DNA from: Roseibacillus sp.
Lineage (GTDB): Bacteria; Verrucomicrobiota; Verrucomicrobiia; Verrucomicrobiales; Akkermansiaceae
Assembly: GCA_051251855.1 (NCBI GenBank)
Contig: JBPOGI010000002.1
Coordinates: 320,001-384,000, forward strand
Reading direction: 5' to 3'
DNA length: 64,000 bases
Below, piece after piece: positions 1,914 through 4,953 of this stretch (its first letter is position 1; each line of letters opens with the position of its first letter). The notes beneath the pieces are model-generated. The model worked only from the letters and a program-made list of their open reading frames with translations. It was not told where the DNA came from and ran no database searches. Made by a program: the position numbers and the translations under genes.

Positions 1914-2597
1914 CTAAGCTAAATGAAGCGTCGAATGGTGCAACTTGGGTTCGTGGGAAAGGTTGGGAAATTCTTCCCAATAGTTCCATGCGATTTCGGT
2001 GTCGGTGACCTTGAGATATGAGCGAGACCATGTCTGAGCGTCGGGTCGGTTCATGCGTACGGTGAAGGCGGAAAGAGGGGTCTGCTGGGGGTTCTGAAAG
2101 TTCTCAAGGTTGTTGCTTTCTTGAAATGCTTTTTGGCGAGCGGCTCTTACCTTTTCGAAACAAAAGGAGGAGCTGGTGACCGGAATCTGAGGTTGGAACG
2201 TGTTCAAGGTTTTCCCGCTCCAGCTAAAGGCTGCGACCTTACCTTTCTGAAAGAAGACGAGGTCAAAAGGTTTGGCTCCGGAGCACTTGGCTGAGAAGTT
2301 TTCTCGGATACTCGCGAATGACTTACAATCTGCGAGTTCCGTGACAACAAGTCCTCTGCTTTTTGAAAAAAACTGGCCGCTTTCCTCGTGCCAGCGGTTG
2401 AGAAGACAGGCGACCAAGCCATGCTCGTTAGCCAGTATCCAAGTGCCGCCCGCCTCTGGGTCGGTGGGTGCCAGATAGCGGGTGCCATTTTCAGTTTTAC
2501 GAGCGCTGGGGGGCTCAGCTCGACGGCGTGTTTTCAGCTCGTCTCGATTAAAAAAGACTTCGAGGCTATCTTGGCCGCGCCAAGTGAGTGTACACAT
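1914..2597 (-). CDS. NRDE/TANGO2 family protein
   Basis: N-terminal MCT, FNRDE motif, D-x-x-A-GGTW, LLN, SRG. Confidence 0.92.
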   Translation of the reverse strand: MCTLTWRGQDSLEVFFNRDELKTRRRAEPPSARKTENGTRYLAPTDPEAGGTWILANEHGLVACLLNRWHEESGQFFSKSRGLVVTELADCKSFASIRENFSAKCSGAKPFDLVFFQKGKVAAFSWSGKTLNTFQPQIPVTSSSFCFEKVRAARQKAFQESNNLENFQNPQQTPLSAFTVRMNRPDAQTWSRSYLKVTDTEIAWNYWEEFPNLSHEPKLHHSTLHLA

Positions 2598-2639
2598 TCT
2601 TTAAGGGGGAAGCCGTGTTTTGGCTTACCTTTGAGAGTA

Positions 2640-2903
2640 TTATTGAGCGAAGGGGTCTGCGACTTCCACTTTAGGAGCTTCCGCTTCTGGCTCTTCAGGT
2701 TCGCTTTTTTCGGTGTTGCCGACCGGCAACGCTGCGCCTGCTTTTCCTCATGTGCTCCCGCCCGGGGAGTTTCCAGAAGACATTCATGTAGAGACGCCCA
2801 TAGAAGGCAGAATCCACAACTGAGCAGCGAAATAGAGCCCGACGATAGCCACGAGGGCAAGAACGCCGGTGAGACTGCTTCCTCTTTGGTTCATTGTATT
2901 CAT
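2640..2903 (-). CDS. Candidate small membrane-anchored selenoprotein with two Sec (U40, U52)
   Basis: MNTMNQRGSSLTGVLALVAIVGLYFAAQLWILPSMGVST-U-MSSGNSPGGST-U-GKAGAALPVGNTEKSEPEEPEAEAPKVEVADPFAQ-TAA. TGA at 2784-2786 and 2748-2750, each followed by a SECIS-like hairpin. Fills the DoxX-NRDE gap on the same strand. Alternative ATG at 2894. Confidence 0.75.
2715..2730 (-). promoter_or_regulatory. SECIS-like hairpin 2 (GUUGCC-GGUC-GGCAAC)
   Basis: Perfect 6-bp stem, GGUC loop starting 24 nt after the second UGA; closely resembles the E. coli fdhF SECIS upper stem-loop GUUGCAGGUCUGCAC. Confidence 0.7.
2755..2769 (-). promoter_or_regulatory. SECIS-like hairpin 1 (CUCCCC-GGGC-GGGAG)
   Basis: 5-bp stem with G-rich loop, first loop G 21 nt after the first UGA; same CC-GGKC-GG apex as hairpin 2. 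Confidence 0.6.
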
Positions 2904-2971
2904 CTCAGGTAGGATAGTCGGGATTCGAAATTATTCCCGTTAAAAGTGCGATCTAATTGTCTGGGAGGGAT

Positions 2972-3382
2972 TTAGGCCGATGCACACTTATTACATTTAA
3001 GGTCGAAGCTCCAAGAGCCTGCGCCTTTCCAAATTACAAAAATGGAGAGGGCAATGAGGAGGAGAGGCAGGGCTAAGGGTGGTTCATCAGCCCAATCGTA
3101 GACGAGGTGAGTGTAGGTTGCCATTCCCATGGCTGGAATGGTGAGAGCTGCACCCACTCTGGCAAAATAGCCGGATACGAGAAGTGCTCCTGCTAGGAGC
3201 TGGAGGACGGGGCCAACAATGGCATTGAGTTCGGGAAAGGGGACCCCAGCGCCTCGCAAGATGGGCTCCAGGGGAGCAATACCAATGAGATGCTGGCTGC
3301 TGATGGCTAGGAGGGGAACAGCGATGAGGATGCGCGCAATGGCGGCTGATTTCTGGTTGGTGGTTTGGGTAATCTGTTTCAT
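2972..3382 (-). CDS. DoxX family membrane protein
   Basis: Four hydrophobic segments, ARILIA...G.FAR.GA...H...GAGSWSFD signature; C-terminal CNKC; start taken at ATG 3382. Confidence 0.88.
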   Translation of the reverse strand: MKQITQTTNQKSAAIARILIAVPLLAISSQHLIGIAPLEPILRGAGVPFPELNAIVGPVLQLLAGALLVSGYFARVGAALTIPAMGMATYTHLVYDWADEPPLALPLLLIALSIFVIWKGAGSWSFDLKCNKCASA

Positions 3383-3483
3383 GTTCACAGGGAAGAAGCG
3401 CGAACTTGGGCCTTTATTCCTTCTAACCACTCAGGCCTTGCGAATTCCGTTCATTTCGGGCAGAGTGCTTTTATTACGTAGTT

Positions 3484-4953
3484 ATGGAAATTTTGATAAA
3501 CTTAATCGCCATTGTGGTGGTTGTCCTCTTGTTCAACTTCATGATCTTCATTCATGAACTGGGCCATTTTTTAGCTGCCAAGTGGCGGGGATTAGAAGTC
3601 GAGAAGTTCTATATTTGGTTCGGAAAACCTCTTTGGAAAAAAACGATTGGCGGAGTGGAGTATGGCATCGGAAGTATTCCCGCAGGGGGATATGTGGCCT
3701 TGCCGCAAATGGCACCAATGGAGGCGATTGAAGGAGGAGATTCCGAGCGACGAAAGCAGCTTCCTCCCATCAAGCCGATTGATAAAATTATCGTCGCGTT
3801 CGCGGGACCGCTTTTTAGTTTCCTACTGGCCTTTGCGGCTGCGTGTGCAGTCTGGGTGTTTGGTAAACCTGCGGATACGGTTCATTCAACAGTGGTTGGC
3901 TACATTCAGGAGGGCAGCCCAGCAGAAAAATCGGGTATTGAGCTTGGAGACAAGATCGTTGCAGTGGATGGAGAAAAGGTCGGGCGCTTTTTGGGAGGCT
4001 TGGATGGTCTGAGTGAAAAGATTATGCTCAGCAAGAACAAGTCGGTGGAGATCACGATCTTACGTGATGGTGTCGAGAAGACGGTGACCTCTACTTTTCT
4101 GGTTGATGATACTTCTTGGTGGCAGCGTCGCGCGATGCGTCGGATTGGGGTGAGCTATGCCGATCCGCTTGTTATCGAAAATATTGAGAAGGAGAGTCCC
4201 GCTGAGCGAGCTGGTTTTCAAAAGGGGGATATCGTGGAAACAATCAATGGAGTGAGAATTTATAGTGTCCCGCAGATGAGCGATTTGCTGAAGGCGAACA
4301 TCGGAAAGAACGTGAACCTAGTGGTGCAGCGGGCTGGGGAGGACGTGGCGATTACGGTTGATTCGGTAGTGCCCAATGACAAGGTGACGGGTAAGGCGCA
4401 TCCTGATGGCCGCGCCATGATCGGAGCAAGATTTGAAACAGCCTTCGACCTTTCCCTAGTGAAGCCAAGTCCGGGTGAACAGGTAAAGGAAGGTTTGTTG
4501 TTGATGTTGACGACCTTGCAAGCAATCACCGCCAAGAATTCTAACGTTGGGATTCAGCATCTGAGCGGACCAGTAGGAATCGGTCATGCCATGTTTGGAT
4601 TCATTCGCACCGACGAGGCCTTGCGGCGAATTCTGTGGTTCATGGTGGTGCTTAACATCAATCTCGCGATTATGAATATGCTGCCTCTTCCTGTCCTGGA
4701 TGGTGGACATATTGTGCTGGCGATTGGCGAGCAGATTATGGGGCGTCCTGTGCAGTTGCGTCTCCTTGAAATTATTCAGACTGGCTTCGTTGTCGTTCTA
4801 TTGACCCTCTTTGTTTACATTACGAGTAAGGATATCGGCGGGCTAATACCTGGAGCCAAGGAAGAGCCTTGGGGTGAAAGAGGAATCGTCTGGCCCATTT
4901 TGACACCGACTGAACCAGCTCTCAATGGAGAGCTTTCCCCTACGTCGGAATAA
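3484..4953 (+). CDS. rseP: RIP metalloprotease RseP (M50, PDZ domains)
   Basis: HELGH, GGYV, AGP, two PDZ-like segments, NMLPLPVLDGGH. Confidence 0.95.
   Translation: MEILINLIAIVVVVLLFNFMIFIHELGHFLAAKWRGLEVEKFYIWFGKPLWKKTIGGVEYGIGSIPAGGYVALPQMAPMEAIEGGDSERRKQLPPIKPIDKIIVAFAGPLFSFLLAFAAACAVWVFGKPADTVHSTVVGYIQEGSPAEKSGIELGDKIVAVDGEKVGRFLGGLDGLSEKIMLSKNKSVEITILRDGVEKTVTSTFLVDDTSWWQRRAMRRIGVSYADPLVIENIEKESPAERAGFQKGDIVETINGVRIYSVPQMSDLLKANIGKNVNLVVQRAGEDVAITVDSVVPNDKVTGKAHPDGRAMIGARFETAFDLSLVKPSPGEQVKEGLLLMLTTLQAITAKNSNVGIQHLSGPVGIGHAMFGFIRTDEALRRILWFMVVLNINLAIMNMLPLPVLDGGHIVLAIGEQIMGRPVQLRLLEIIQTGFVVVLLTLFVYITSKDIGGLIPGAKEEPWGERGIVWPILTPTEPALNGELSPTSE

Follow-up and report, generated by a model that had tools for sequence, protein, structure and literature searches.

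An initial annotation of the window, the 64,000-nucleotide stretch of Roseibacillus sp. DNA analyzed here, raised the question whether the short gap between a DoxX-family gene and a TANGO2/NRDE gene encodes a small membrane protein with two selenocysteine (Sec) residues. The proposed frame lies on the minus strand and contains two TGA codons, each followed by a hairpin resembling the bacterial SECIS element. Our comparison with relatives points to both internal TGA codons of the 87-residue gene almost certainly being read as Sec. The Sec machinery of the genome, the homologues, and the conservation and covariation of the hairpins all agree with this two-Sec reading. The features of the locus are collected in Table 1.

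Table 1. Predicted features of the two-Sec locus and its neighbors (window coordinates)
Feature	Position	Strand	Basis or remark
Coding frame, 87 aa	2903..2640	-	ATG 2903 to TAA 2640; predicted U40 and U52
Predicted single membrane helix, residues 10–34	2802..2876	-	AlphaFold2, Kyte-Doolittle
Family motif W-I-L-P-x-x-G-V-x-T, residues 30–39	2787..2816	-	precedes first predicted Sec
TGA40, predicted first Sec codon, at the family's conserved Sec/Cys position	2784..2786	-	homologue Cys/TGA alignment
Putative SECIS hairpin 1, upper stem and G-rich loop	2755..2769	-	also spells linker N-S-P-G-G-S
TGA52, predicted second Sec codon	2748..2750	-	four bases past hairpin 1 upper stem
Acidic Pro-rich tail, 35 residues	2643..2747	-	predicted coil
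Putative SECIS hairpin 2, six pairs and GGUC loop	2715..2730	-	also spells L-P-V-G-N
DoxX-family membrane protein, upstream neighbor	2972..3430	-	PF07681, E 4e-8; stop 68 nt before ATG
TANGO2/NRDE protein, downstream neighbor	1914..2597	-	PF05742, E 1e-13; start 42 nt past TAA

An unannotated gene for a small membrane protein

The frame proved to be as first described: it is 87 residues long, its codons 40 and 52 are TGA and each is preceded by ACA, the translation contains no Cys, and the tail has 35 residues. ATG 2903 is preferred to ATG 2894 as the probable start. It has the same distance to the conserved Trp as the homologue starts in genomes G001, G003, G004, and G006, and no clear Shine-Dalgarno sequence was seen upstream of it. 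The AlphaFold2 model has one helix, with mean pLDDT values of 90 and 88 for residues 11–30; the rest is coil, the loop is without predicted fold, and the pTM is 0.35. The Kyte-Doolittle maximum, 2.34, falls at residues 14–32. Across 60 aligned members of the family, L32, P33, G36, T39, and position 40 are invariant.

The 87-residue protein has no match in Pfam or NCBIfam, and neither does the family part of any of 24 relatives; one relative, P0081, is matched via its thioredoxin part only. An ESM Atlas query with P0006 returned one unnamed cluster (0.85), a lead only. The Trx fold with UxxC/CxxU that marks thioredoxin-fold selenoproteins was not found in the model, which consists of one helix and coil. 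The tail has a coding score of +18 over 34 dicodons, and its D-P-F terminus is shared with G001, G004, and G005. Among 24 genes of genus g11, the ratio of synonymous to non-synonymous single-base differences is 0.8–1.1 in the tail after U52, versus 4.2 in the helix. Judged by these ratios, the helix and motif are under purifying selection and the tail appears to be under little protein-level constraint. On the sequence comparison as a whole, the 87-residue membrane-protein gene is real and unannotated.

Positively charged residues follow the helix on its C-terminal side in 105 of 120 members, mostly outside the window's taxonomic family, and are found only on the N-terminal side in G000, G001, G003, and G004. 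With flanks unequal in length, this distribution weakly suggests that the Sec loop may face outward in this genus and inward, with a cytoplasmic U-x4-C, in most other members.

Selenocysteine machinery and genetic code

Selenocysteine machinery, which the initial annotation had suggested looking for, is present in full: the genome encodes selA (E 2e-136), selB (E 1e-98), selD, and tRNA-Sec(UCA). All three proteins score above curated cut-offs, and selD carries an in-frame TGA of its own. TGA terminates 649 of 2541 long frames and hence is an ordinary stop here; the tRNA-Trp anticodons are CCA, and the UCA tRNA is tRNA-Sec. This use of TGA as a normal stop excludes a Trp code.

The first TGA occupies the conserved Sec/Cys position of a widespread family

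A profile built from 18 relatives of the gene found 1006 representative proteins at E values up to 0.001. We inspected position 40 in the best 150 of them. After subtraction of our own two proteins, and with 6 of the 150 missing the motif pattern, 96 have Cys, 39 terminate just before this position, 8 have Trp, and one has Arg. The Trp entries are most simply explained as gene calls made with code 4. The Arg entry, P0015, otherwise equals the printed sequence of a TGA gene (L131) and reflects either true variation or a sequencing error.

Scanning species genomes with a DNA pattern yielded at least 120 loci. Among the 120 listed, the first Sec position is TGA in 99 and TGC or TGT in 21. The 80 loci with titles come from Planctomycetota, Acidobacteriota, delta-proteobacteria, Verrucomicrobiota, Chloroflexota, and others. 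A G-loop hairpin of −5 kcal/mol or lower follows 87 of the 99 TGA codons versus 2 of the 21 Cys codons, and one of −7.5 or lower follows 65 versus none. Presence of a SECIS thus tracks the codon type. Cys at +5, which was outside the search pattern, is found in 94 of the TGA loci and in all 21 Cys loci, and the query gene appears to descend from this widespread T-U(or C)-x4-C family.

Within the window's taxonomic family, the gene was found in 100 of 401 genomes, with TGA in 101 of 102 matches. Of 99 TGA-form genomes, 95 have selA and the remaining four (70–89% complete) have selB. The sole Cys-form genome of the 401, G025, is 96% complete, and selA, selB, and tRNA-Sec were not found in it. 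As the TGA-form genomes are kin, they represent few independent events, not 99. Sampling of the order gave matches in 27 of 301 genomes and sampling of the phylum in none of 400 other genomes; the latter blank reflects which genomes were drawn, since the order and family samples did match. TAA or TAG, which would have spoken for termination, was met at the TGA40 position in none of the genomes read. From these comparisons, UGA40 can be regarded with near certainty as a Sec codon, recoded in the SelB manner with hairpin 1.

Four single-Sec members (L159, L199, L204, and L236) are without any Cys; a resolving residue is therefore not obligatory. A metagenome sub-type, T-U-(A/G/S)-x-P with a single Sec and no +5 Cys, is represented by L204, L208, L236, L238, L261, L270, and L291, and its hairpins are mostly very strong. 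P0081 is a Cys member fused to thioredoxin, and in the Sec members L167 and L198 an in-frame stretch follows that reads like a thioredoxin start.

Both hairpins resemble bacterial SECIS elements

The bacterial SECIS (bSECIS) consensus, for which we used the Fig. 2 legend of PMC13188914, has a loop of 3–9 nt with a G in loop positions 1–2, a stem of 4–16 bp, and a distance of 16–37 nt after the UGA. Both hairpins agree with this model and share its short upper stem: their loops start after 19 and 23 nt, and their stems have 5 and 6 pairs. The loop G lies 21 nt past TGA40 in hairpin 1 and 24 nt past TGA52 in hairpin 2, exactly as first annotated. Different from the usual bacterial arrangement, the query packs two full UGA-SECIS units into 75 nt. 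The upper stem of hairpin 1 (CUCCC-CGGGC-GGGAG) has an energy of −6.5 kcal/mol, and longer windows give −7.6 and −12.5 kcal/mol, values lying around the model threshold of −7.5. The upper stem of hairpin 2 (GUUGCC-GGUC-GGCAAC) is below this threshold at −7.8 kcal/mol.

Within this genome alone, such stability is ordinary. Shuffle z-scores of the hairpins range from −0.95 to +0.80, and among 6000 sampled TGAs 10% have a hairpin reaching −5 and 3.4% one reaching −7.5 kcal/mol. The apex motif YCGGKCGR, picked from these same hairpins, lies 3' of 495 of 175,622 TGAs (0.28%). It is the recurrence of both TGAs and their hairpins in relatives that lifts the observation above chance, so that the case rests on comparison.

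Hairpin 1 is found at the same position in G001, G003, G004, G005, and G007. In an alignment of 26 distinct sequences, five of the seven stem pairs of hairpin 2 show changes on both sides and 93.4% of cells are paired, a value reached by none of 500 shuffles and compared with 32–53% for slid partners; these figures are inflated by relatedness, and the structure was derived from the query gene. The SECIS-like character originally ascribed to the hairpins is thus borne out in the relatives. The fdhA and selD genes of the same genome likewise carry hairpins with a GGUC apex. Hairpin 2 presumably also resembles the SECIS of E. coli fdhF. An Rfam scan of positions 2400–3600 returned six matches, all far under the gathering scores and none to a SECIS family.

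The second TGA defines a probable multi-Sec branch

In 47 genomes, with one locus read per genome, the gene contains two or more in-frame TGAs and a separate hairpin for each of them (two TGAs in 44 genomes, three in two, and four in one). These are eight of the nine genomes of the window's genus, all 35 g11 genomes with the gene, two of six in g12, and two of 19 in g15, where 19 of 29 genes were read. No multi-Sec gene was found in G002 (79% complete), a member of the window's genus; the one in G008 is divergent and was recovered by a single-protein search alone. A metagenome search with a pattern requiring the second TGA recovered more sequences of the g11 type.

The +5 residue of the query is Asn and the second TGA lies at +12. 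None of the 47 multi-Sec genomes has Cys at +5, and TAA, TAG, and Cys are all absent from their second Sec position. The GGUC loop after the last TGA begins at 24 nt in 42 of these genomes. Successive Sec codons are separated by 8–12 codons in 50 of 51 intervals. Homologues with either TGA or Cys, anticipated by the initial annotation, exist for codon 40; at codon 52 conserved TGA was confirmed, and a Cys homologue was found neither in the genomes read nor in a word-based protein search with P0001, which covered lengths of 47–153 only and gave two candidates, none significant. The usual Cys/Sec test therefore holds for U40 only. Taken together, the comparisons make it very probable that UGA52 also specifies Sec by SelB-type recoding, with hairpin 2 as its SECIS.

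Four metagenome sequences with a nearby second TGA (L217, L218, L234, and L241) were rejected as chance, their hairpins being absent. L356 (G752:C2:1148329-1148948) is a two-Sec gene with a frame shift after the second TGA and the hairpin one base further; the shift is an assembly error or decay.

We then inspected how the units are arranged. Hairpins of single-Sec relatives either spell S-P-G at 19–20 nt or spell P-V-G at 20–23 nt, and the query gene has one of each type in series. G006 has four units, three similar ones reading S-Q-S-G-S-T-U and one P-V-G; G716 and G721 have three, with S-A-G-G-G-U repeated; G714 has a second P-T-U-x4-C unit, and in G773 a T-U unit occurs twice. In genus g11, the base of the first hairpin extends into the second UGA. 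We infer that a unit of UGA plus SECIS was repeatedly duplicated, the extra units probably having several origins; a tree from the 81 nt before the first TGA is too short to count the origins of the second Sec. The multi-Sec branch would accordingly have arisen by loss of the +5 Cys and repetition of a UGA with its own SECIS. With such a unit repeated, the Gly/Ser residues that link one Sec to the next are mostly dictated by the sequence of the RNA hairpin, and SECIS geometry sets the spacing of 8–12 codons.

These genes would show how bacteria fit several Sec codons into a short stretch when each needs an in-frame hairpin, the same nucleotides serving as linker peptide and as SECIS. With natural cassettes of two, three, and four units spaced 8–12 codons apart, one can test directly how efficient and processive consecutive SelB recoding is, and the cassettes could inform the expression of multi-Sec proteins.

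Relation to known selenoprotein families

The published sources compared here were available in part, and statements about them refer to those parts. An 'Unknown (Geobacter lovleyi)' family is counted in five organisms in PMC5029168 (2016), and an 'Unknown' family of 15 sequences with no Cys homologues is given in PMC2398784 (2008). The query shares with the printed members of the family a short chain, one N-terminal hydrophobic helix, and a low-complexity tail. By eye, the helix end also agrees, [WY]-[IV]-L-P-x-x-G-[IV]-x-T-U in those members and WILPSMGVST-U in the query. Seven of the 15 GOS sequences of PMC2398784 were compared, and all are single-Sec members. P0093 and P0098, two proteins picked up by the profile of the gene's relatives (E about 2e-8), match printed family sequences closely by eye. 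That the 2016 row, which comes without sequence, denotes the same family as the deep-Sep and GOS labels is our reading.

The printed members (six deep-Sep and seven of the 15 GOS sequences) have one Sec followed by Cys five or six residues on. U-x4-C describes these members; no formal family definition was found in the sources. In contrast, the query has two Sec and no Cys, and relatives have three or four Sec. The family was thus already catalogued in single-Sec form as predicted and unstudied, and the multi-Sec branch is a variant for which the sources consulted gave no description. That the whole family is uncatalogued, as the lack of a match in Table 1 of PMC13188914 might suggest, is contradicted by the supplements of other surveys. 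In the parts consulted, the 2026 review PMC13188914 has no row recognizable as this Sec family, the 2022 review PMC9312934 does not contain 'lovleyi', and the text and supplement of BSepDB (PMC13326102), its online content aside, lack the family motifs. A literature search for the family motif, the multi-Sec form, or tandem bacterial UGA-SECIS units found no description.

More than one Sec per chain is also known from the selenobacteriocin TIGR04081, MbdU NF045648, TsoB NF045694, and UXX-star NF041114 (PMC13188914, Table 1). The query resembles them in this respect and differs from them in having no NCBIfam or Pfam match. The maximum of Sec in that table is three, and G006 has four candidates. 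The comparison enlarges a neglected family, which is without a Pfam or NCBIfam model although 1006 representative proteins match its profile with E values up to 0.001, the best 150 of them inspected here.

Genomic context and possible function

In the window's taxonomic family, TANGO2 is the usual neighbor. A DoxX gene is near 4 of 29 multi-Sec loci and also beside the Cys form in G025, which shares the order DoxX-gene-TANGO2 with the query. TANGO2 is near 14 of 29 multi-Sec loci versus 5 of 23 related loci of single-Sec or Cys type, although many of the loci end too soon to show it. The function of TANGO2 is disputed (PMC10470608, PMC11867700, and PMC12782551, as far as available), so this neighbor yields no firm clue. 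Within about 4 kb, a gene for rhodanese, MBL-rhodanese, SQR, TauE, YeeE, or CoA-disulfide-reductase-rhodanese occurs at 14 of 80 loci from many phyla, self hits excluded, against a background of 0.6% of random windows in the query genome; that background comes from a single genome of a different lineage, and the 80 loci are related to one another. The loci with sulfur genes nearby are those of single-Sec and Cys members from other phyla, and the query gene is far from its own genome's rhodanese/SQR cluster (C7:584-591 kb). A thioredoxin gene is near six loci. The sulfur-transfer neighbors are a first functional clue for the family.

The reading that we prefer, at a probability of about one half, is a membrane-tethered selenol redox or sulfane-sulfur carrier in which U52 replaces the lost Cys. 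U40 would attack a persulfide, polysulfide, disulfide, or peroxide close to the membrane; U52, on its flexible loop, would substitute for the lost Cys as the resolving or second reactive group, giving a diselenide or Se-S adduct; and a thioredoxin-type partner would re-reduce the U40/U52 adduct. The diselenide loop suggested at the outset is conjectural, and strict pairing cannot account for everything. The odd Sec numbers of G716 and G721, with three each, count against a simple diselenide, and together with the Cys-less single-Sec members they show that members of the family need not have one diselenide pair.

It is doubtful, though conceivable, that the Sec residues instead bind soft metals (Cu, Hg, Ag, Zn) as a membrane-anchored multivalent chelator or hand-off site, with the double recoding kept. 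Two to four Sec on flexible Gly/Ser linkers would be a better match for multidentate binding than for a defined catalytic pair, the same genome has another double-Sec gene, and ArsR-type regulators are near 10 loci and RND pumps near six. However, the protein has no His or additional Cys ligands, no metal P-type ATPase or copper chaperone appears among the neighbor clusters listed, and the recurrent neighbors are sulfur-transfer genes.

A selenium store or gauge is unlikely. Here, the number of UGA-SECIS units would set the selenium held or steepen the dependence of translation on Sec, and in the gauge version the downstream TANGO2 gene would through polarity also depend steeply on Sec supply. 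The unit number does vary from one to four with several apparent origins, linkers and tail hold little protein information, and TANGO2 follows closely in the 14 multi-Sec loci counted above. But the helix and motif are selected, downstream genes vary across the family, and G025 retains its Cys version in the same gene order with no Sec machinery found, so a thiol or selenol matters even without selenium. A related idea, improbable but slightly less so, is a poly-Sec membrane anchor in which one to four copies of UGA plus SECIS would store or gauge selenium, or act as a multivalent selenol array, and not as an ordinary two-residue redox site. Animal selenoprotein P, with its Sec-rich part, would be the functional analogue.

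It is very unlikely that only TGA40 encodes Sec, that TGA52 is a true stop at which the protein ends after 51 residues, and that hairpin 2 serves termination or stability. The lack of a Cys homologue, the weakly constrained tail, and the frequency of TGA as a stop would fit such an end. Against it, the codon is TAA or TAG in none of the 35 g11 and 8 g1 genomes with the gene, and the frame past it stays open for 22–29 codons in all 24 g11 genes examined. The loop of hairpin 2 is fixed in position and its stem covaries; a promoter and terminator scan gave nothing exceeding shuffles, with the minus strand blank and no U-tract at hairpin 2. Finally, that TGA means Trp (code 4), or that the frame is a pseudogene or the shadow of the overlapping 174-codon plus-strand frame 2388-2912, can practically be dismissed: the eight Trp entries and the UGA-to-Trp change reported for some Verrucomicrobiota (PMC13462651, available part) are outweighed by the stop usage and tRNAs of this genome, by the alignment of position 40 with Cys, and by stops interrupting the opposite-strand frame in G001, G003, G004, and G006.

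Other candidate selenoprotein genes in the genome

A genome-wide scan for TGA plus hairpin, flanked by coding potential before and after, returned 320 candidates. Among the 90 listed, about a dozen are selenoprotein-like by motif, including fdhA and several thioredoxin-like genes. Those at C11:42440, C1:1584111, C9:31937, C11:99365, C10:234380, C8:303832, C1:1403243, and C7:93121 comprise U-x-x-C thioredoxin- or peroxiredoxin-like genes, fdhA (U-H-A-P), and selD, all named by motif except selD. Two large neighboring frames, C6:415249-417987 and C6:418561-422811 (plus strand), have TGA in D-L-U-S-V-Y-W with hairpins of −9.6 and −9.5. An exported protein at C6:711623-712339 (plus strand) has two TGA-plus-hairpin sites in repeats, and another at C11:155654-156466 (minus strand) has its TGA at 155881 in G-G-G-U-G-G-G, with a GGUC hairpin at 24 nt. 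The TGA at C9 position 357797 (plus strand) has 522 codons before and 314 after it, reads G-P-P-U-D-C, and is followed by a −7.6 hairpin. Among the tRNA genes, ten lie within 1.5 kb at C10:114076-115599, and a second tRNA-Trp(CCA) call of 87 nt is at C1:686953-687039.
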